Source: Candidatus Zixiibacteriota bacterium
GTDB lineage: Bacteria > Zixibacteria > MSB-5A5 > GN15 > FEB-12
Assembly (NCBI GenBank): GCA_020346225.1
Contig: CP070777.1
Span: forward strand, 2,764,736-2,828,735
DNA: 64,000 nucleotides
Direction: 5' to 3'
The notes beneath the pieces were generated by a model. That model saw only the letters and a list, made by a program, of their open reading frames with translations. It had not been told where the DNA came from and did no database searches. This document shows, piece by piece, positions 4,150 to 26,091 of the stretch. The translations under genes and the position numbers were made by a program. Numbering within the stretch: position 1 is the stretch's first letter; every line of letters starts with the position of its first letter.

Positions 4150-6558
4150 ATGGTAAAAACGATGACCGCTGCAGTTCTTGTGCTGCTTGTCACCGGTGGG
4201 GCCCTGATGTCACAGCCTCTCTTTGACACCAGGCTTCCCCATCCCGTAGGCTATTCTGCCCAGGCCATTGTCTCAGACGACTTTGATGACCTCCCCTGGT
4301 TCGATGTCGCCGTTACTTGTTCTGAAACCGATGAGGTAATTGTTGTCCTCGGTACGAGCGACGGCCGCTTTTACAACAGCGGTACCTATGAGGTCGGTCT
4401 GGGGGGGACCGGGGTAAGCGACGAGCCCTGGGCCATCGCTGCGGCCGACCTCGATGGAATTAATGGTCCTGACCTGGCCGTGGCCAACCGGTCGGGACCG
4501 GGTTCCGCCAGCATCTCCATTCTATTTAACAACGGTGATGGCACGTTTGCCGATGCCGTCCACTATGCGGCCGGGTCCACCTGCGATTACGTTTCGATAA
4601 CATCGGCAGATGTCGATGGCCTTAACGGTATCGATCTTATCACCACGAATTCTTATGACAACACCGTTTGCGTGATGCTAAATGATGGATCCGGAAACTT
4701 CGGAACCGGGGTTACTTACTCCACCGGTAACTTTCCCGTGGCCGTCTGCGCCATTGACGTGTATGGCACTGGCCTTTCCGATCTGGCTGTGGTTAATGAA
4801 GCAGATGACAATGTGTTAATACTGAGCAACAACGGTGACGGTACTTTCTCGCCTGGCTCCTATTGCCCGGTTGGAGACTCTCCGCGGTCGATTGTCTCGC
4901 GCGACTTTGACGGTGATAACAGCCCCGATCTTGCTGTAGGCAACTACGGCTCTTCTCAGGTTTCCGTTCTGCTTAATGACGGTTCCGGTGTTTTCGGTGC
5001 TGCTGTCAACTACGACGTGCCGGTCGGACCAACTCATCAGTCGATTTGTGCCGGCCCACTTGACGGCGACGCCAGCCGTGACCTGGCCGTGCTTGGAAGT
5101 ACGGACAGTGTTTATGTTCTACTTAATTCCGGCGACGGCACTTTCGACGGCTACACGGCATATCCGGCCGGGGACTCAACGTATGCGGTGGTTGCCATGT
5201 ACTTCAACATGGACTTCTTTGAAGACCTGGTCGTATCAAGCATGTCCAACGCCCCTGGGGACTCGGGCTATGTTTCCGTCCTTCTGAACAAGGAAGACGA
5301 GGGCTTTCCCCTGCCGGCCGCCTATAGTGTCGGCGGTGATCCCAGTACCGTGATCGCAGTAGATCTCGACGGTTCCGACGGCCTCGATCTGGTGACGGCG
5401 AATCCAGGCTCCGACAACATATCGGCGCTTTATAATGACGGTGATGGAAACTACGACAACATCGTGAGCTATAGCGCCGGCGACGAGCCGCGCTCAGTGG
5501 CAGCCGGGGATTTCGATAGCGACAACGATTATGATGTTGCGGTAGCTAACTTTGGGTCGAAAACAGTTACCATATATGCTAATAACAGCGGATCACTTTC
5601 CCTTTCGGGGCAATTGGCTTTCTCTAATGAACCGATTGCGATCGAGTCTGCTGACTTTGATGATGACGGCGACGATGATCTGGCTGTGGTGTGTTCCCTG
5701 TCGAACCAGGTTTACGTCATGATTTGCGACGGTTCGCTCGGCTTTTATGACCCCATCAGCTATGGGACCGGTGCTGACCCGCGGGCCGTCCATTCCGCCG
5801 ATTTCGATGGCGTCAACGGTCCCGATCTGGCCGTGGCCAATTGGGGGAGCAACGATGTCTCGGTCTTTCTCAGCAACGGCGACGGGTCGTTCAGCACGGC
5901 CGGGAATTTTCCTGCGGGAAACAACCCCATATCTATCACCTCGGCTATGTTTGACGGGGACAACGATTATGACCTGGCGGTGGCTTCCGAGACGGATGAT
6001 TCCTGTGCCATACTCTGGAATGACGGTTACGGTAATTTCTCCACATGCTCTTTCTTCTCAGCCTTGTGGAGCGGTTATACCTGCGTTGCCGCCGCTGACG
6101 TTGATGGGTCTGACAGTCCTGACCTCATCCTGAGCCACCGGCCCCTTTCCGCTGTCACCGTGATGCTCAACGACGGGGCCGGCAACATGTCCGACGGCAG
6201 TGGCGCCCTTCATTTCGGAACCGGAATGCATCCCTCATGCGTCGTTGCTGCCGACGTAGATGGCGACACCGACGATGATCTGGTTACGGTTCATCCCGAG
6301 GAGTATCGGGTTTGTACCTTCCTCAATACGACTATCGAGCCATGCTGTGAGCTGCGCGGTGATGTCAACCATGACGGCCAAATCGATGTACTCGATGTCA
6401 CCCATCTGGTATTTTGGATTTTCAAGGCCGGCTCCCCGCCTCCCCCGTGTATGGACGAGGCAGACGTCGACGGCAACGATGTCGTAAACGTTCTCGATGC
6501 AATATACATGGTCGACTTCATCTTCAAGTTGGGTCCGCCGCCAGTTCCGTGCCCGTAA
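4150..6558 (+). CDS. Secreted FG-GAP/VCBS-repeat (beta-propeller) protein with a C-terminal dockerin-like domain
   Basis: AAGGAGG RBS 8 nt upstream and an N-terminal signal peptide. More than 10 repeats of the D.DGD...DL.V.N....V.VLLN.GDG.F type. The tail has two EF-hand-like segments (DVNHDGQIDVLDV, DVDGNDVVNVLDA). Confidence 0.85.
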   Translation: MVKTMTAAVLVLLVTGGALMSQPLFDTRLPHPVGYSAQAIVSDDFDDLPWFDVAVTCSETDEVIVVLGTSDGRFYNSGTYEVGLGGTGVSDEPWAIAAADLDGINGPDLAVANRSGPGSASISILFNNGDGTFADAVHYAAGSTCDYVSITSADVDGLNGIDLITTNSYDNTVCVMLNDGSGNFGTGVTYSTGNFPVAVCAIDVYGTGLSDLAVVNEADDNVLILSNNGDGTFSPGSYCPVGDSPRSIVSRDFDGDNSPDLAVGNYGSSQVSVLLNDGSGVFGAAVNYDVPVGPTHQSICAGPLDGDASRDLAVLGSTDSVYVLLNSGDGTFDGYTAYPAGDSTYAVVAMYFNMDFFEDLVVSSMSNAPGDSGYVSVLLNKEDEGFPLPAAYSVGGDPSTVIAVDLDGSDGLDLVTANPGSDNISALYNDGDGNYDNIVSYSAGDEPRSVAAGDFDSDNDYDVAVANFGSKTVTIYANNSGSLSLSGQLAFSNEPIAIESADFDDDGDDDLAVVCSLSNQVYVMICDGSLGFYDPISYGTGADPRAVHSADFDGVNGPDLAVANWGSNDVSVFLSNGDGSFSTAGNFPAGNNPISITSAMFDGDNDYDLAVASETDDSCAILWNDGYGNFSTCSFFSALWSGYTCVAAADVDGSDSPDLILSHRPLSAVTVMLNDGAGNMSDGSGALHFGTGMHPSCVVAADVDGDTDDDLVTVHPEEYRVCTFLNTTIEPCCELRGDVNHDGQIDVLDVTHLVFWIFKAGSPPPPCMDEADVDGNDVVNVLDAIYMVDFIFKLGPPPVPCP

Positions 6559-7649: not shown

Positions 7650-8276
7650 TTATTTCTTCTTCTTGCCGGAGCCTTTCTTGCCGCCCTTGTCCTTCTTGGC
7701 CGGTTTGTCGGCCTCCTTTTTGGACTTCTCTTTCTTGATCTTGTCGGAAATCGCTATAAAGCTCTGTCCCTGCTCTCGCATGCGGACCACCTCGTCCGGA
7801 GACCAGCCGTAATGCTCCGAGACAAATTTGAGATTGACGAAATTTACGATATCAACATCAGTCAGCTTGATTGATTTCCACTGGTCCCGGTGACGGTTGC
7901 GAAAATGGCCGCAGGCCTTGCCGTAAGGCGGTCCGGAGACCTTCGCAATTTCGACATAGTAAATAGCCGCGCTGAGTTCGAAGTGGGTCGTGATTTCCAT
8001 CCAGGTGCGCCCGCCCAGTCGCAGGTCGACGATGACACTTGGCGCTACATTGGCATGCCGCGCAAGGAAAAAGACTACAGCCAGGTCGTCATCCGATATC
8101 TCCTTCTTCTTGACGACGATGATTTCTTTCTCCGGTACCCGGTAGTGGTCGCCGATAGCGAGATAGAAGCTGCTTACGCGGCCATCGGTGATGGAAAGAG
8201 CCGCCTCAACGCTCGCCTGCACTGCAGACGGCACCATGGCCAGAACAAGAACCATAATCAGCATGATCCGTTTCAT
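7650..8276 (-). CDS. Secreted hypothetical protein with a lysine-rich C-terminal tail
   Basis: AGGAGG lies 7 nt upstream of the ATG at 8276. Signal peptide MKRIMLIMVLVLAMVPSAVQA. Tail KKEKSKKEADKPAKKDKGGKKGSGKKKK. Confidence 0.65.
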   Translation of the reverse strand: MKRIMLIMVLVLAMVPSAVQASVEAALSITDGRVSSFYLAIGDHYRVPEKEIIVVKKKEISDDDLAVVFFLARHANVAPSVIVDLRLGGRTWMEITTHFELSAAIYYVEIAKVSGPPYGKACGHFRNRHRDQWKSIKLTDVDIVNFVNLKFVSEHYGWSPDEVVRMREQGQSFIAISDKIKKEKSKKEADKPAKKDKGGKKGSGKKKK

Positions 8277-20577: not shown

Positions 20578-20706
20578 GTCAGCCTCATTTGTTTTGGGGA
20601 AAGATAGGGGATTGCCGGTGAGGAGAAAAGAGATTATCCGTAAGAGCACCAGGCTGATTACCTTGAATTAGCACACAGTTGCCTGCGGTTGCCGACCGGC
20701 ACGATG

Positions 20707-21039
20707 CTACTGTTCCAGCTCGATATTCACACCACCAACGAGTTTCGTGATGGCATTGTAGGCGATACCGGTATAAAGGCCGACGATCAACCCGTAGATC
20801 CCGTAAATCAGGGGCCAGGTGATGATCCCGTAGAGGCCAAGCCACTTTTGGACGCCGGCTCCATAAGACCCGTAACATGCGGGCTCACAGAGCGCGATTA
20901 TCATCAGCACGCATCCAACCAATAGGCCGATAGGGATGTGAATAATGACGCTCACTTTGGCCAAAGATGCGATGCCTATTTTCTTGAGAACCATAAATTG
21001 TATCCAATCTGATTTATCATGCTTTGCTGTGTCGCGCAC
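20707..21039 (-). CDS. Small integral membrane protein, unknown function
   Basis: Three predicted TM helices. The start is uncertain (GTG 21039 or ATG 20994). Confidence 0.5.
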   Translation of the reverse strand: MRDTAKHDKSDWIQFMVLKKIGIASLAKVSVIIHIPIGLLVGCVLMIIALCEPACYGSYGAGVQKWLGLYGIITWPLIYGIYGLIVGLYTGIAYNAITKLVGGVNIELEQ

Positions 21040-21056
21040 GTACTTCCCGTGATGGT

Positions 21057-21623
21057 TTAACCGGACTCTGCTTTCGAAACTGTGCGTTGCTTGAGTCCGA
21101 ATACGGCCTTTTTATACCTCTCGTGATAATGCCTGAATCTGTAGATGAATCCATACGTTACGAGCATGCCGGCAAGTATAGCTGCTCCCCCCGGTAGATA
21201 CCCCTCCCGCGAGGCAATATCCAAGGCTAAAGCTACGGAAGCAATTGCGGTTGGTGTAACCATGGCAATTGTGAACCTGGTCAAGCTGCGGTCTCTGAAT
21301 ATAATGGCTACGTAGAAAATCTCGTGCGAATTCAACAATTCGCTGTGCCTGTGTGAGAATTCCGGGTCTTCCTCTATCCAACCGCCGGGCGCCAGCCACC
21401 TTCGCAACGGGAGACTAATTGGATAAATAGCGTGGCCGAGAAAATAAGCGACCAACAAGAACAACAGAACACGGCCCAGGTCTTCGCCGGTGACAGACAC
21501 GATATTAGCCAGGGGGAAGAAGAAAAGTAAAACACCCACGAGCGCTATGCTGCCAGGGAAAAAGTACAGTAGAAAATCTCGCAGTCCGAAGTGCAGTGTC
21601 TTTGGTTCCATGATTGTGCTCAT
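21057..21623 (-). CDS. Integral membrane protein, unknown function
   Basis: GGGAGG RBS 8 nt before the ATG at 21623. Four or more hydrophobic helices. No known motif. Confidence 0.55.
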   Translation of the reverse strand: MSTIMEPKTLHFGLRDFLLYFFPGSIALVGVLLFFFPLANIVSVTGEDLGRVLLFLLVAYFLGHAIYPISLPLRRWLAPGGWIEEDPEFSHRHSELLNSHEIFYVAIIFRDRSLTRFTIAMVTPTAIASVALALDIASREGYLPGGAAILAGMLVTYGFIYRFRHYHERYKKAVFGLKQRTVSKAESG

Positions 21624-21662
21624 ACACATAACCTCCCTCAGATATCGCTTTTGTGTTGGGCA

Positions 21663-21746
21663 TGCCCAACCAGCTCAAAAGTTGCCTTTTATACGAACCC
21701 GTTTAAAATGGTACCCCCGATTGAATAAAATATTCAACTCGCTTCT
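21663..21746 (-). repeat. Decayed copy of the tRNA-Arg 3' half plus its 3' flank (copy C)
   Basis: Contains CGGGGGTACCA (21709-21719, minus strand), identical to the tRNA-Arg 3' end. The adjoining ~55 nt resemble the flank at 23414-23458. Confidence 0.6.
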
Positions 21747-21835
21747 TTCATGGGCGGCAGACGTCCCCGTCTGCCCCTGTTTCACGGCACCTCTTCGCCA
21801 ACCCAACTCCAATCTTTGTCAGTTGTAGGCGTCGA

Positions 21836-21918
21836 GCCCAACCCGCTCAAAAGCTCCTTTGTATATGAATGCATCTGAGATGGTACCCCCAATTGGACGA
21901 AATATGCAACTCTCTTCT
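21836..21918 (-). repeat. Decayed copy of the tRNA-Arg 3' half plus its 3' flank (copy B)
   Basis: Contains GGGGGTACCA (21881-21890). The flank is about 79% identical by eye to 23414-23469. The upstream part retains T-arm-like GCA..TTTCGTCC. Confidence 0.6.
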
Positions 21919-22039
21919 GGGGCCGGAGGTGGAGATTATAGCTAACCGGCTGAAAGAATTGATGATAGCGTGACCTCTATTCGGGGGAGTAGAATATCCG
22001 GCCGCCCACAGAACTGTGCGTTCAGCCTGACCAGGGTAA

Positions 22040-22507
22040 TCAATTCTCTCCATGTTTGGTCAGTGACCAATGGGAATGCACCAACTTCCACTCCCCCTTT
22101 TCAAGGTGATATACCTCGGTGCTGTTCCAGCGGGTCTTTACACTGTCGTTGCTGTCGTAATTCACCAGATTGAAAGTCAGAATTCCTACATTGTCGTAAA
22201 GTTGCACCCGCCAGTTCGGCATCTCGAACCGATGAATATCGATCTTCCCCTGCGCCGGAACCAGCAACTCTTTGAAAGCAGCAAGGCCATCCAGTCGCTT
22301 TTCCTGTTCCGGGTCAAAGTATGATATATCCTCAGAAGCCAGGTCAATATAACCATACACATCCCCGTTCCCCCAGCGTGTCAGAGCCACTTTCTCCAGC
22401 TCGACGATCACACTCTGAGTTTCCCCCTGTCCGCTGTCTTTAGCAAAGCCTGTCGTACTTGAAGCCATAAAAACAGCCACAGCGGCCAATCGTAGAATTC
22501 TCCACAT
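22040..22507 (-). CDS. Secreted SnoaL/NTF2-like (DUF4440-type) protein
   Basis: AAGGAGAG RBS and a signal peptide. NTF2-like pattern ending ...GEWKLVHSHWS. Confidence 0.65.
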   Translation of the reverse strand: MWRILRLAAVAVFMASSTTGFAKDSGQGETQSVIVELEKVALTRWGNGDVYGYIDLASEDISYFDPEQEKRLDGLAAFKELLVPAQGKIDIHRFEMPNWRVQLYDNVGILTFNLVNYDSNDSVKTRWNSTEVYHLEKGEWKLVHSHWSLTKHGEN

Positions 22508-22895
22508 AGAGTCTCTCCTTAAACGAGCAACCGATTCATTGGCAACTCAGGCTCGCACGTTAACCGGCAAGCATCTGAATTGCCGCTTCAGAAATTTCAA
22601 CTGTGAATCCCAACCCAATGTAAACAGACATGGCCTATGCCACCAATATAAGGTTCGGATCTGCCCCGCGATGTGCCAATTATCCTCTAACTTCACCACT
22701 TAAGTCTCATGTCCGGCACAACAGCGCCGGAACTCTCATTGGCCCCGCCTACTTTAACGAAATAAGCTCCCGAATGGCACCCGTTACGCAATTTCTGCTC
22801 GACGACGACCCCTCCGGTAACCTCAAGCCCGCTAGTGCACTCAGGAGCCTAGCGGCAATCTCTGTAACCCGTTACAATGCAATAAAACCGGGTAA

Positions 22896-22913
22896 CCCAC
22901 AGCTTGCTGTGGG
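22896..22913. repeat. REP-like palindrome, copy 1 (inverted relative to copies 2 and 3)
   Basis: CCCACAGC-TT-GCTGTGGG with a conserved GGTTACCC flank. Confidence 0.7.
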
Positions 22914-22934
22914 ATCCTTGCGCGGTGGCACTCG

Positions 22935-23189
22935 CTACAACTCATAATCATCCATCCTCAGCGGCACATCCTTCACACTGCCGCGCGCGGGCAGCATGAC
23001 CAAATGCACATGCTCCGGCATGACAACATACCCCAGCAGACGGAAACGATGCCTGAGGCGAGCGGCGTCAAGCTCTTGGATCGGCAGTTCTGTAGCGCGG
23101 AGACAGGTAAGGTAGGGCTGGAGTCGATAGCAGCAGAAAGTCACAAAGCGACCGGTGCCGGCATGATCATAGTGTCGCAGTTTCGGCAT
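22935..23189 (-). pseudogene. Truncated REP-associated tyrosine transposase (RAYT, IS200/IS605 Y1 family)
   Basis: The 84 aa carry FVTFCCY and the HUH motif PEHVHLV, then stop far short of the catalytic-Tyr region. A possible C-terminal remnant (TGGVVVEQ) lies out of frame at about 22780-22850. Confidence 0.7.
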
Positions 23190-23219
23190 GATATCAGTGC
23201 CCTGCCAGATTGGTGCGAC

Positions 23220-23237
23220 CCCACAGCAAGCTGTGGG
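23220..23237. repeat. REP-like palindrome, copy 2
   Basis: CCCACAGC-AA-GCTGTGGG followed by GTTACACAGGTTACCTG. Confidence 0.7.
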
Positions 23238-23361
23238 TTACACAGGTTACCTGATTTCAAATGACGCTGAAGTATCCTCCCGCTTGCAGGCCCTGCTGAA
23301 ATAACGGGGATGAAAGCGGGTTTGTCAAATGGTTTAGGGCGCTGTGCCCAGGCAGTGTGAT

Positions 23362-23379
23362 CCCACCGCAAGCGGTGGG
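23362..23379. repeat. REP-like palindrome, copy 3
   Basis: CCCACCGC-AA-GCGGTGGG. An A>C / T>G compensatory pair keeps the palindrome intact. Confidence 0.65.
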
Positions 23380-23458
23380 GTACCAAGTTGCCTGATGTCG
23401 TTTGTGCTCGTTGAGCCGAACAACTCAATAGCTGCTTTTTACATGAATCCATCAAAGA

Positions 23459-23535
23459 TGGTACCCCCGGCAGGACTCGAACCTGCTACCCTCTGCTTAG
23501 AAGGCAGATGCTCTATCCGGATGAGCTACGGGGGC
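23459..23535 (-). tRNA. tRNA-Arg (anticodon TCT), CCA encoded
   Basis: Manual cloverleaf: GCCCCCG-TA-GCTC-ATCCGGATA-GAGC-A-TCTGC-CTTCTAA-GCAGA-GGGTA-GCAGG-TTCGAGT-CCTGC-CGGGGGT-A-CCA. Confidence 0.9.
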
Positions 23536-23724: not shown

Positions 23725-24879
23725 CTAGTGCAGCGACAGGCTCCGGACATATTCGCCCGGAGGTGCATCCTCGTGGGTACGGCCGTCGTCGTGGCAGCCG
23801 GAGCAGTCCGGCATCTTGTCAAATGCCTTGCCCGGGTGGCAGTCGGTGCATTCCAGTTCGACATGAATTTCATCTAGCTGCAGCCCCACTCTCACGTGGT
23901 TGAAATTGGCCTGGTTCCAGCCGCCGTGACAGGCGGCGCACTCTCTGTTAAGTCGGGCAATTTTCCGGCCCGTCGGGTGGCAGCTGCGGCAGCCGAGTTT
24001 CTCATGATATTTGTTCAGCGGCCAGCCGACCGAGGCGTGCGAGAACCCGGGTTTCTGGCCGGTGTCATGACACTTGCCGCAGGGATCGTTGAGATGGCAG
24101 TCGTTGCAGATAGCATGAATCTCCTCGTCGGTCTTGCCCAGCCGCAGCTCTTTGTCCAGGTCATGGCAATAGCTGCAGTTTTCCTGCTGGTGACAGTCCA
24201 CGCAGCGCAAACCGTACAGGTCGATGTGGTCCTGGTGATGCAGGGTGACCGTGGGCGCCTCTTCATGAGGCGTGACCCAGACCTTTACGTCGGGGACGGT
24301 AATTTCCGGGTGGGGGATACCCACGATATCGGTCGAATCATGCGGAGCGGCGGAGAAGGCCGAGCCTTCGTGTGGAAGATGGCATACGACACACTTGGTG
24401 TCGTGGCTCCATTCGCGGTGGCATCCCATACACTGGCGGTGGAAAGCGCCTTTCAGTCCCGGCTGCCTCAGGTTCGGCGGGCCGGCCGGTTCCTCGCCGT
24501 GACATTCCGCGCAGGGAGGGAATTTGCCGGCCGGGCTGTAATGGTGGCAGATGCTGCAGCCTTCACCCATTCCGACCATCTCGGCATGATGCTTGTGGTC
24601 GAACCTGACCGGCCCGTACAACTGCTCCAGTTCGTCCAGCATGGCCATATCGGGGCCCTCAGTGGCCGAGTGAGCCGGCGTGCTCGTGACGCCTGTCCGC
24701 AGGCATTTGCTGAGGCATGGTTCGCTCCTTGTAGGTGTCTGGCAAACGTGGCAGTCGCTGCACGGGGTGCGAGTGGCGTCCGGAACCGGTCGGTCCTCGG
24801 GCTGACCCAGCACGGTTATTCCCGACAGAGTTATCAACAGCAACAAACACGCCAGCGCAATGCCTATATTTCTGTCCAT
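23725..24879 (-). CDS. Periplasmic multiheme cytochrome c (13 CxxCH motifs), paralog 2
   Basis: AAGAGGAG RBS before the ATG at 24879. Signal peptide present. 13 CxxCH motifs counted by hand. Collinear with the upstream paralog. Confidence 0.88.
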   Translation of the reverse strand: MDRNIGIALACLLLLITLSGITVLGQPEDRPVPDATRTPCSDCHVCQTPTRSEPCLSKCLRTGVTSTPAHSATEGPDMAMLDELEQLYGPVRFDHKHHAEMVGMGEGCSICHHYSPAGKFPPCAECHGEEPAGPPNLRQPGLKGAFHRQCMGCHREWSHDTKCVVCHLPHEGSAFSAAPHDSTDIVGIPHPEITVPDVKVWVTPHEEAPTVTLHHQDHIDLYGLRCVDCHQQENCSYCHDLDKELRLGKTDEEIHAICNDCHLNDPCGKCHDTGQKPGFSHASVGWPLNKYHEKLGCRSCHPTGRKIARLNRECAACHGGWNQANFNHVRVGLQLDEIHVELECTDCHPGKAFDKMPDCSGCHDDGRTHEDAPPGEYVRSLSLH

Positions 24880-24930
24880 TCTACGAGACTCCTCTTGATT
24901 AGATGTGGGCCCAGCCTGCCATTGCAAACC

Positions 24931-26091
24931 TTAGCCGCTGGATAGCGGTTTCACATACTCTCCGGGCGGGCCGTCTTCATGGTTGCGGCAATCGTCGTGG
25001 CATGCCGAGCACTTCGGTATCCGGTTGTACGCCTGGTTCATATGGCAATCGCCACAATCCAGCTCGCCATGCAGGTCATCCAGCCGCAGCCCGGTCACGA
25101 CATGCCGGAAATTTGTCTGGTTCCATCCGGCGTGACAGTCAACGCACCGATTGCTCAGGTGGCCGATAGGCCGTCCGGTGGGATGACAGGAACGACAATT
25201 CAATTCCTGATGGTATTGATTCAGGACCCAGCCGCCGTTGGCCGCATGTGAGAAAGCGGGCTTTTCCGAATGACCGTGGCACCTGGCGCAGGGATCGTTG
25301 GCGTGGCAGTCGTTGCAGATCGCGTGAATCTCCTCGTCGGTCTTGGCCACCCGCTTTTCCTTCTGGTAATCGTGACAATAGCTGCAGTTTTCCTGCTGGT
25401 GGCAATTGACACAGCGAAGCCCGAACAAATCGATATGCTCCTGGTGGTGAAACGTCACCACCGGCCCGGCGTCATACGGGGTCCTCCAGACTTTCTTCTC
25501 CGGCGCTGTGATGACCGGATGCGGTGTGCCGAGTATATCGGTGCCGTCAGCACTGGCCGAGGCCAGAGTGGCTCCATTGGCCGGCAGGTGACATAACACG
25601 CACTTGGTGTCATGGCTCCACTCGCGGTGGCAACCCATACACTGACGATGGTAGGCGCCTCTTAAACCGGGCTGTCTCAAAGTCTGGGCCTCGGTCGGCT
25701 CGTTGGCGTGGCATGTTTTGCACGGCGGGTATTTGGCGTCTGTGCTGTAGTGATGGCAAATACCGCAGCCTTCGCCCATACCGACCATCTCGGCATGGTG
25801 CTTGTGGTCGAACCGGACCGGCTGGTACAACCTCTCCAGTCCGCTCAATATGGCCACGTCCGGACCCTCCGACGGTGAATGGACCCTGGTCTCGCGATCG
25901 TGCGTCCAGAGACACATTTCCAGACAGGGGTCGGCCGTGGTCGGCGTGGAACAGGCATGACAATCGGTGCAGGGCGGCTGAGTGGCGTCCTGCTGCGACG
26001 ACATGTCCGGTGATTGGGCCAGGATCGGCAGTCCCGTGAAGGCCAATATTAGAAGCGAAGCGGTAAGCCAAAGGCTAGTCATCTTTTTCAT
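24931..26091 (-). CDS. Periplasmic multiheme cytochrome c (13 CxxCH motifs), paralog 1
   Basis: Signal peptide MKKMTSLWLTASLLILAFTGLPILAQ. 13 CxxCH motifs at positions matching paralog 2. Confidence 0.9.
   Translation of the reverse strand: MKKMTSLWLTASLLILAFTGLPILAQSPDMSSQQDATQPPCTDCHACSTPTTADPCLEMCLWTHDRETRVHSPSEGPDVAILSGLERLYQPVRFDHKHHAEMVGMGEGCGICHHYSTDAKYPPCKTCHANEPTEAQTLRQPGLRGAYHRQCMGCHREWSHDTKCVLCHLPANGATLASASADGTDILGTPHPVITAPEKKVWRTPYDAGPVVTFHHQEHIDLFGLRCVNCHQQENCSYCHDYQKEKRVAKTDEEIHAICNDCHANDPCARCHGHSEKPAFSHAANGGWVLNQYHQELNCRSCHPTGRPIGHLSNRCVDCHAGWNQTNFRHVVTGLRLDDLHGELDCGDCHMNQAYNRIPKCSACHDDCRNHEDGPPGEYVKPLSSG

Follow-up and report, generated by a model that had tools for sequence, protein, structure and literature searches.

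In a 64-kb stretch of DNA from a metagenome-assembled genome of Candidatus Zixiibacteriota (contig CP070777.1; hereafter the window, with coordinates given as positions within it), an intact gene for the arginine transfer RNA with anticodon TCT, tRNA-Arg(TCT), is followed downstream by two degraded copies of a unit made of the 3' part of this gene and the sequence immediately beyond it. We analyzed the three units (copy A at the gene itself, and copies B and C further downstream), the DNA lying between them, and the same locus in related genomes. The features on which the comparison of the units rests are as follows.

23459-23535, minus strand: intact tRNA-Arg(TCT) gene with encoded CCA (ARAGORN; Rfam tRNA model, 67.1 bits, E = 1.4e-13), with an orthologous tRNA in the relatives L002, L004, and L009
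23396-23498 (profile match 23396-23500), minus strand: copy A, consisting of tRNA positions ~38-77 and ~63 nucleotides (nt) of downstream tail (nhmmer, alignment)
23458-23468, minus strand: core GGGGGTACCAT in copy A (exact match), equivalent to the 3' strand of the acceptor stem, the discriminator base, CCA, and one further nt
23449-23461, minus strand: predicted tail hairpin CCATC-TTT-GATGG, overlapping the CCA end and followed by ATTCAT; the motif is common to tRNA-Arg tails in relatives
21817-21921, minus strand: copy B, a degraded tRNA 3' portion with an exact core (21880-21890) and a related tail (repeat search, profile, alignment)
21646-21748, minus strand: copy C, the most diverged copy, with an exact core (21708-21718; repeat search, profile, alignment)

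Three repeat units anchored on the tRNA-Arg end

The three units lie in the same orientation, and each comprises, over ~104 nt, an exact 11-nt core, a tail of ~63 nt, and ~30 nt of weak similarity to the tRNA body. The window contains three exact occurrences of the core GGGGGTACCAT, each on the minus strand (23458-23468, 21880-21890, and 21708-21718). When one mismatch was allowed, four matches were found (the three exact ones and a one-mismatch site at 964-974), compared with a mean of 0.95 in dinucleotide shuffles, none of which reached four (0/100). A repeat search recovered three copies of a 54-nt family, 76% identical to the reference copy, as well as a B/C pair of 83 nt that is 78% identical. 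Local alignment scores were 61 for A-B and 45 for A-C, with shuffled sequences scoring 17-18 ± 2 (maximum 28), and the identity between A and B was 84% over 45 nt. A profile built from A, B, and C matched these three copies at E ≤ 1e-29, which is circular because the profile was built from them; in the 64-kb window, to which the copy counts of the unit apply, it detected no fourth copy (next match E > 1). Measured from start to start, the units are spaced by 1,578 nt (A-B, ~1.5 kb between the copies) and 172 nt (B-C, 66 nt between), and copy C ends 17 nt from the open reading frame (ORF) of a 190-amino acid (aa) membrane protein. Considering the alignment scores far above those of shuffles, the three exact cores, and the profile E-values, chance similarity is refuted with near certainty.

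Upstream of the core, similarity to the tRNA body was tested with the comparison anchored at the core, since an earlier alignment with free end gaps lacked power (z ~0). In the anchored comparison, A and B matched at 17/30 positions (p = 0.002) and A and C at 16/30 (p = 0.006), a real but modest similarity. More than ~40 nt upstream of the core the similarity was at chance level, and the 5' half of the tRNA is represented in neither B nor C. Neither copy gave a match to tRNA or any other family in Rfam, even at E up to 1, and copy B showed no excess folding (z = 0) and no tRNA-like fold. These results leave a structured RNA at B and C unsupported, and they do not agree with a tRNA pseudogene formed by whole-gene duplication, since the similarity stops ~40 nt upstream of the core and no Rfam tRNA match was obtained. 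A T-arm-like hairpin in C (TTGAA...TTCAA) was also considered as possible covariation; it is offset by one position relative to the tRNA and is missing from B, and is not evidence of selection.

The initial annotation of this DNA, made by eye, had reported the core at two further same-orientation sites, a related tail of about 55 nt (roughly 79% identical for A-B and 70% for A-C), and weak similarity to the T-arm and variable region, and had judged these too good to be chance matches. All of these observations hold, the estimated identities being about right. A dispersed element found at non-tRNA loci, which had been raised as the alternative, was not seen in the window, where no copies exist beyond the three described here.

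To establish how the copies are related, A, B, and C were compared column by column, with the following counts.

tRNA-body columns (29): B and C identical with A differing, 10; private to B, 1; private to C, 4
Core (11 nt): B and C identical with A differing, 0; private to B, 0; private to C, 0
Tail columns (63): B and C identical with A differing, 7; private to B, 8; private to C, 13

The 3' half of tRNA-Arg(TCT) is identical in L004 (JBFLZR010000003), meaning that the functional tRNA sequence is fixed; therefore, the 10 differences from the tRNA that B and C share arose in their common ancestor. Judged from these columns, B and C are sister copies, derived either from a single copy that had already diverged or from the arms of related elements. 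The 10 shared changes in 29 columns contradict the initial description of B and C as two independently decayed tRNA halves. The tRNA-body changes run predominantly from GC to AT, by 7:2 in copy B and by 10:1 in copy C, a drift that would be expected of an unselected relic.

The two sides of the core have not diverged alike. B and C group clearly as sisters on the upstream side of the core, whereas in the tail A, B, and C are about equidistant, and uniform decay does not fit this pattern. The ratio of changes before and after the B/C split is 10:5 upstream of the core vs 7:21 downstream (Fisher p ~0.01). Such a mosaic around the core would fit exchange at the core and is not what a single duplication followed by uniform decay predicts. 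In the column directly before the core, copies A and C have C and copy B has T. The sequences beside the units are mutually unrelated (p = 0.37-0.97), which rules out a plain 172-nt tandem duplication as the source of B and C. Toward its 5' end, the B/C unit stops matching the tRNA at about position 38-39, on the 3' side of the anticodon loop, which is where integrases that target tRNA genes usually and classically cross over; given that B and C are sisters, this boundary is one observation and not two.

The intervening DNA and the same locus in relatives

The DNA from 20650 to 23458 has a GC content of 51.2%, compared with 56.5% for the window, and ranks as the third lowest of 306 segments of 2.8 kb. 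The main ORFs between 20.6 and 23.5 kb were scanned against Pfam and NCBIfam. Starting from copy A, the A-B interval contains a repetitive extragenic palindrome (REP), a truncated gene for a REP-associated tyrosine transposase (RAYT) within an inverted REP pair, and then an NTF2/SnoaL-like gene. The features of the intervening DNA and of the region beyond copy C, in this order, are listed below.

23362-23379, no strand assigned: REP palindrome 3, CCCACCGCAAGCGGTGGG, 17 nt past the end of copy A (repeat search)
23217-23248, no strand assigned: REP palindrome 2, CCCACAGCAAGCTGTGGG (repeat search)
22935-23189, minus strand: truncated RAYT gene, reduced to the N-terminal half, in which the HUH motif lies (model NF047646 of NCBIfam, matched over positions 3-68 of 146; E = 1.2e-9, 38.2 bits vs an 80-bit cutoff)
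22885-22916, no strand assigned: REP palindrome 1, CCCACAGCTTGCTGTGGG, inverted partner of REP palindrome 2 (repeat search)
22040-22802, minus strand: transferred block, made up of the gene for an NTF2/SnoaL-like secreted protein (22040-22507; Pfam SnoaL_3, E = 1e-7) and ~290 nt upstream of it
21756-21775, no strand assigned: REP-like palindrome GGCAGACGTCCCCGTCTGCC, single copy in the window and the sole item in the 66-nt spacer between B and C
21057-21629, minus strand: 190-aa multi-pass membrane protein, a near-orphan beyond copy C (no family match; two distant homologues of 37-40% identity among 5.8 billion proteins)
20707-21039, minus strand: 110-aa membrane protein (tblastn: homologues in L004 and L009, 32-38% identical and adjacent to the nitroreductase gene)

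A score below the cutoff is what half a protein should give; the RAYT gene lacks its C-terminal half, and with it the catalytic tyrosine, and is a relic. The three numbered REPs are the only ones in the window. The palindrome between B and C recurs with a compensatory G/C swap as GGCAGACCTCCCGGTCTGCC at L006:861-880, downstream of a tRNA-Arg(CCG) gene; L006 also carries the window REP sequence CCCACAGCTTGCTGTGGG, and the repeats lie downstream of a tRNA-Arg gene on both contigs.

The NTF2/SnoaL block shares 84.9% DNA identity over 484 nt (with a 67-nt indel) and 85% protein identity with contig CP070756 (L008:9771-10468), in which all other genes shared with the window are 66-72% identical. 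The difference between 85% and this background points clearly to a transfer later than the divergence reflected in the other genes, and suggests that the block, a single gene in extent, moved recently between Zixibacteria lineages. In CP070756 the block occupies an unlinked locus that is free of tRNA genes within 10 kb, and no tRNA gene lies near the SnoaL homologues of contigs L011-L013. The stop codon marks the exact end of the similarity to CP070756.

No integrase, excisionase, or other element gene was detected in 20.6-23.5 kb, where the Pfam and NCBIfam scans returned SnoaL_3 and the RAYT fragment only. The initial annotation had described this region as AT-rich and as holding a broken RAYT, REP palindromes, and a small secreted protein with no surviving integrase, and each part of that description agrees with the present results. 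Its two orphan membrane-protein genes fared unevenly: the 190-aa protein is indeed a near-orphan, while the 110-aa protein has homologues in L004 and L009 and, from these matches, is probably native. In both relatives, these homologues lie on the other side of the nitroreductase gene.

The locus was compared with that of relatives L001-L004 and L009, the closest of which are 64-68% identical to the window in the neighboring nitroreductase protein. The conserved gene order is Fer4, NrfD, cytochrome, and tRNA-Arg(TCT), followed by a LIM/DA1-like gene and nitroreductase. Alignment of the window with relatives breaks off at 20608 and resumes at 23444, 15 nt beyond the end of the tRNA, and the segment 20608-23444 (from the tRNA to the nitroreductase gene) has a counterpart at this locus in none of the relatives fetched. 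What follows the tRNA gene differs from genome to genome.

L009: nothing inserted; the LIM gene is 46 nt away
L002: a single gene encoding 401 aa
L004: genes for YceI, DUF5777, and a copper-binding protein
Window: RAYT/REP, the NTF2 gene, copies B and C, and the two membrane-protein genes

Because L002, L004, and the window carry different genes behind the same tRNA, and because this tRNA directly abuts the LIM gene in L009, we regard tRNA-Arg(TCT) as a gene that, by this comparison, behaves as a recurrent insertion site, or hotspot, in these Zixibacteria. The LIM/DA1-like gene adjoins the nitroreductase gene in all five relatives that have this neighborhood and is absent from the whole 64-kb window, where its place is taken by the two membrane-protein genes. 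The initial annotation had proposed looking in related genomes for absence of the segment and an empty site. The segment is indeed unmatched at the locus, and in L009 the tRNA adjoins the LIM gene; however, the comparison is weakened by relatives that are only 64-68% identical and by the missing LIM gene in the window.

In L004, a direct repeat of 200 nt (5255-5455 and 7901-8102) brackets the 2.65-kb insert with YceI, DUF5777, and the copper-binding protein. The repeat spans the promoter region of tRNA-Arg (93% identity) and tRNA positions 1 to ~67 (86%), ending at the junction of T-stem and acceptor stem, where the core in the window begins. The distal copy is a decayed tRNA that is not called by ARAGORN, and it sits at the position of the functional tRNA of L009 beside the LIM gene. 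These sequences show that not every event at this tRNA looks like a classical short attachment site. Like copies B and C, the L004 tRNA pseudogene is decayed tRNA-Arg sequence downstream of a functional gene with GC-to-AT drift; unlike them, it extends over the promoter and the tRNA 5' part, whereas B and C lack the tRNA 5' half entirely.

Part of the tail is shared with relatives. The first ~17 nt after tRNA-Arg genes (TTTGNTGGATTYA) are conserved across distant Zixibacteria (window 23444-23461, L002:7340-7360, L006:1214-1232, and L009:7971-7995). Related tails are also present in L004 as well as L009, and in L006 the same tail follows tRNA-Arg(CCG). Where CCA is encoded, the hairpin takes the form CCAAC-TTT-GTTGG in L002 and CCAAT-TTT-GTTGG in L006, which amounts to one compensatory pair and one wobble relative to the window. 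The tail of a tRNA-Pro gene in the window is unrelated to the tRNA-Arg tail. Copies B (GATGCATTCAT) and C (AACGGGTTCGT) depart most from the motif of the relatives, each with a weakened hairpin.

On the other side of the tRNA, beside NrfD and Fer4, two tandem paralogous genes for multiheme cytochromes (23725-24927 and 24931-26091; ~400 aa, many CxxCH) lie upstream of it. L002 has DNA matches to both at two places, and in L004 a single cytochrome gene is called at the equivalent position.

Origin of the repeats

With moderate confidence, we read B and C as most likely att-type (attachment-site) junction scars of DNA insertion at the 3' end of tRNA-Arg(TCT), a variable hotspot in Zixibacteria. 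Each insertion would have restored the tRNA end and left an earlier tRNA 3' end, with its tail, displaced further downstream, and the 11-nt acceptor/CCA core would be the likely region of strand exchange. The inserted DNA may then have been trimmed to ~1.5 kb (the NTF2/SnoaL block, the RAYT fragment, and the REPs) and to 66 nt (one palindrome). Two histories could have produced the pair of sisters: (i) one displaced fragment was later duplicated or (ii) two related elements carried arms flanking the same core. The REPs and RAYT would have colonized the inserted DNA later. The analysis establishes the repeats themselves, that they are anchored on the tRNA end, that the DNA between them is foreign, and that the site is variable among relatives. 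Insertion by a site-specific recombinase is what we infer, and with neither an integrase nor any further element gene in the region, the same holds for the term "integrative elements".

Integrative elements typically feature displaced tRNA fragments and tandem arrays, and Islander/TIGER, which applies element size limits of 2-200 kb, maps islands from an intact tRNA at one end and a displaced tRNA fragment at the other (PMC7192596). As in islands of the Islander type, the window has an intact tRNA at one boundary and direct-orientation fragments of its 3' part downstream with an exact shared core; between them lie lineage-specific, low-GC DNA and a transferred gene, and there is more than one repeat, as in tandem arrays. 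Unlike such islands, the window has no integrase gene, its intervals of 1.5 kb and 66 nt fall under the 2-kb lower limit, the similarity runs ~63 nt past the tRNA, and the two fragments are sisters rather than independent displaced copies.

Some of these differences and several further observations weigh against the junction-scar reading. Beyond the lack of any element gene noted above, both intervals are below any functional element size, and similarity over ~63 nt past the tRNA end is not needed for restoring the tRNA. A simple model predicts the original host flank at the outermost copy; the tail closest to those of relatives is that of copy A and not that of copy C. Loss of the LIM gene means that the region was remodeled and not simply inserted into, and relatives as distant as those fetched (64-68% protein identity) give no true empty-site comparison. 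The run of invariant positions in the core is only marginal in a permutation test (p = 0.04). Lastly, no element with a matching attachment site was found in scans of viral, genome, and metagenome sequences or in phage records: the A-type and B/C-type patterns gave nothing in viral contigs, as did a phage BLAST of 21640-23460. In the genome and metagenome scans, the core-plus-tail pattern was found at tRNA-Arg(CCG) loci only, in L005, L006, and L007. The matches in L005 and L007 (Dehalococcoidia) are due to chance, and L006 is a 1.4-kb metagenome contig with the related tail and the same REPs. The initial annotation had attributed the locus to serial integrations at a tRNA hotspot. This was right in kind, as the repeats, the foreign DNA, and the variable site indicate, although "serial integrations" overstates a case with no integrase, tiny intervals, and two sister copies.

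The same repeats could possibly, though with clearly lower probability, have arisen without an integrase, either by a Campbell-type single crossover with tRNA-Arg DNA of a related cell or by local copying through unequal exchange, the redundant copies having decayed afterward. Such an origin would accord with the absence of an integrase, with similarity that extends well beyond the tRNA end, and with two sister copies only 172 nt apart; the 200-nt repeat of L004, with promoter and nearly the whole tRNA, likewise looks homology-driven and not like a short attachment site. However, the spacers beside the units are unrelated (p = 0.37-0.97, as above), so that a simple tandem duplication of 172 nt does not account for B and C, and the intervening DNA is foreign and not duplicated. 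The 5' limit of B and C at the anticodon loop, with the tRNA 5' half absent, is also better matched by site-specific exchange than by random break points, and the mosaic around the core would be unexpected from one duplication and uniform decay.

It is improbable that the tail is a selected cis element, whether a signal for tRNA 3' processing or termination or a leader reused before the membrane-protein operon, with the likeness to a scar being incidental. In its favor, tRNA-Arg genes of L002, L006, L009, and L004 are followed by the conserved ~17 nt that open the tail (TTTGNTGGATTYA) and, if they encode CCA, by the CCA hairpin with its one compensatory pair; the tail is better conserved than the tRNA body on the branch between A and B/C, and a gene starts 17 nt beyond copy C. 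Against it, B and C stray most from the motif of the relatives and have a weakened hairpin. There is no Rfam match, the folding of B is at z = 0, and scans for promoters and terminators at the units gave nothing above chance. Further copies are absent from the 64-kb window, in which the tRNA-Pro tail is unrelated.

A slimmer chance still falls to the idea that small cassettes are gained and lost at Zixibacteria tRNA-Arg genes without a resident integrase, using the acceptor/CCA end and the tail hairpin (CCAUC-UUU-GAUGG, then AUUCA) as the exchange site. It draws on the occurrence of the same tail after tRNA-Arg(TCT) and a tRNA-Arg(CCG) and on the presence of REP/RAYT elements at both loci, and a separate insertion mechanism, possibly trans-acting or linked to an HUH enzyme, would then lie behind the long unit and the junction in L004.

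As in REP/RAYT systems, an inverted REP pair brackets the RAYT gene, here directly beside the tRNA tail; unlike in those systems, the RAYT is truncated to its N-terminal half. REPs are not known as a source of direct repeats of 100 nt; therefore, the REP/RAYT module probably colonized dispensable DNA at a later time and did not itself give rise to the repeats.

An accessory islet at tRNA-Arg(TCT)

The locus is real but ordinary, an example of a well-known phenomenon: an accessory islet that is small, eroded, and linked to a tRNA gene, with degenerate repeats at its junctions. Its novelty is limited to being described for Zixibacteria, and it involves no new principle. For annotation, copies B and C should be labeled as relics of an attachment site or of tRNA fragments, and the intervening genes as accessory. 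For the biology of the group, the 2.8-kb stretch holds a layered insertion history that includes a foreign NTF2-like gene, a RAYT/REP relic, and the loss of a LIM/DA1-like gene, and it marks tRNA-Arg(TCT) as a hotspot of gene exchange in the little-studied phylum Zixibacteria.

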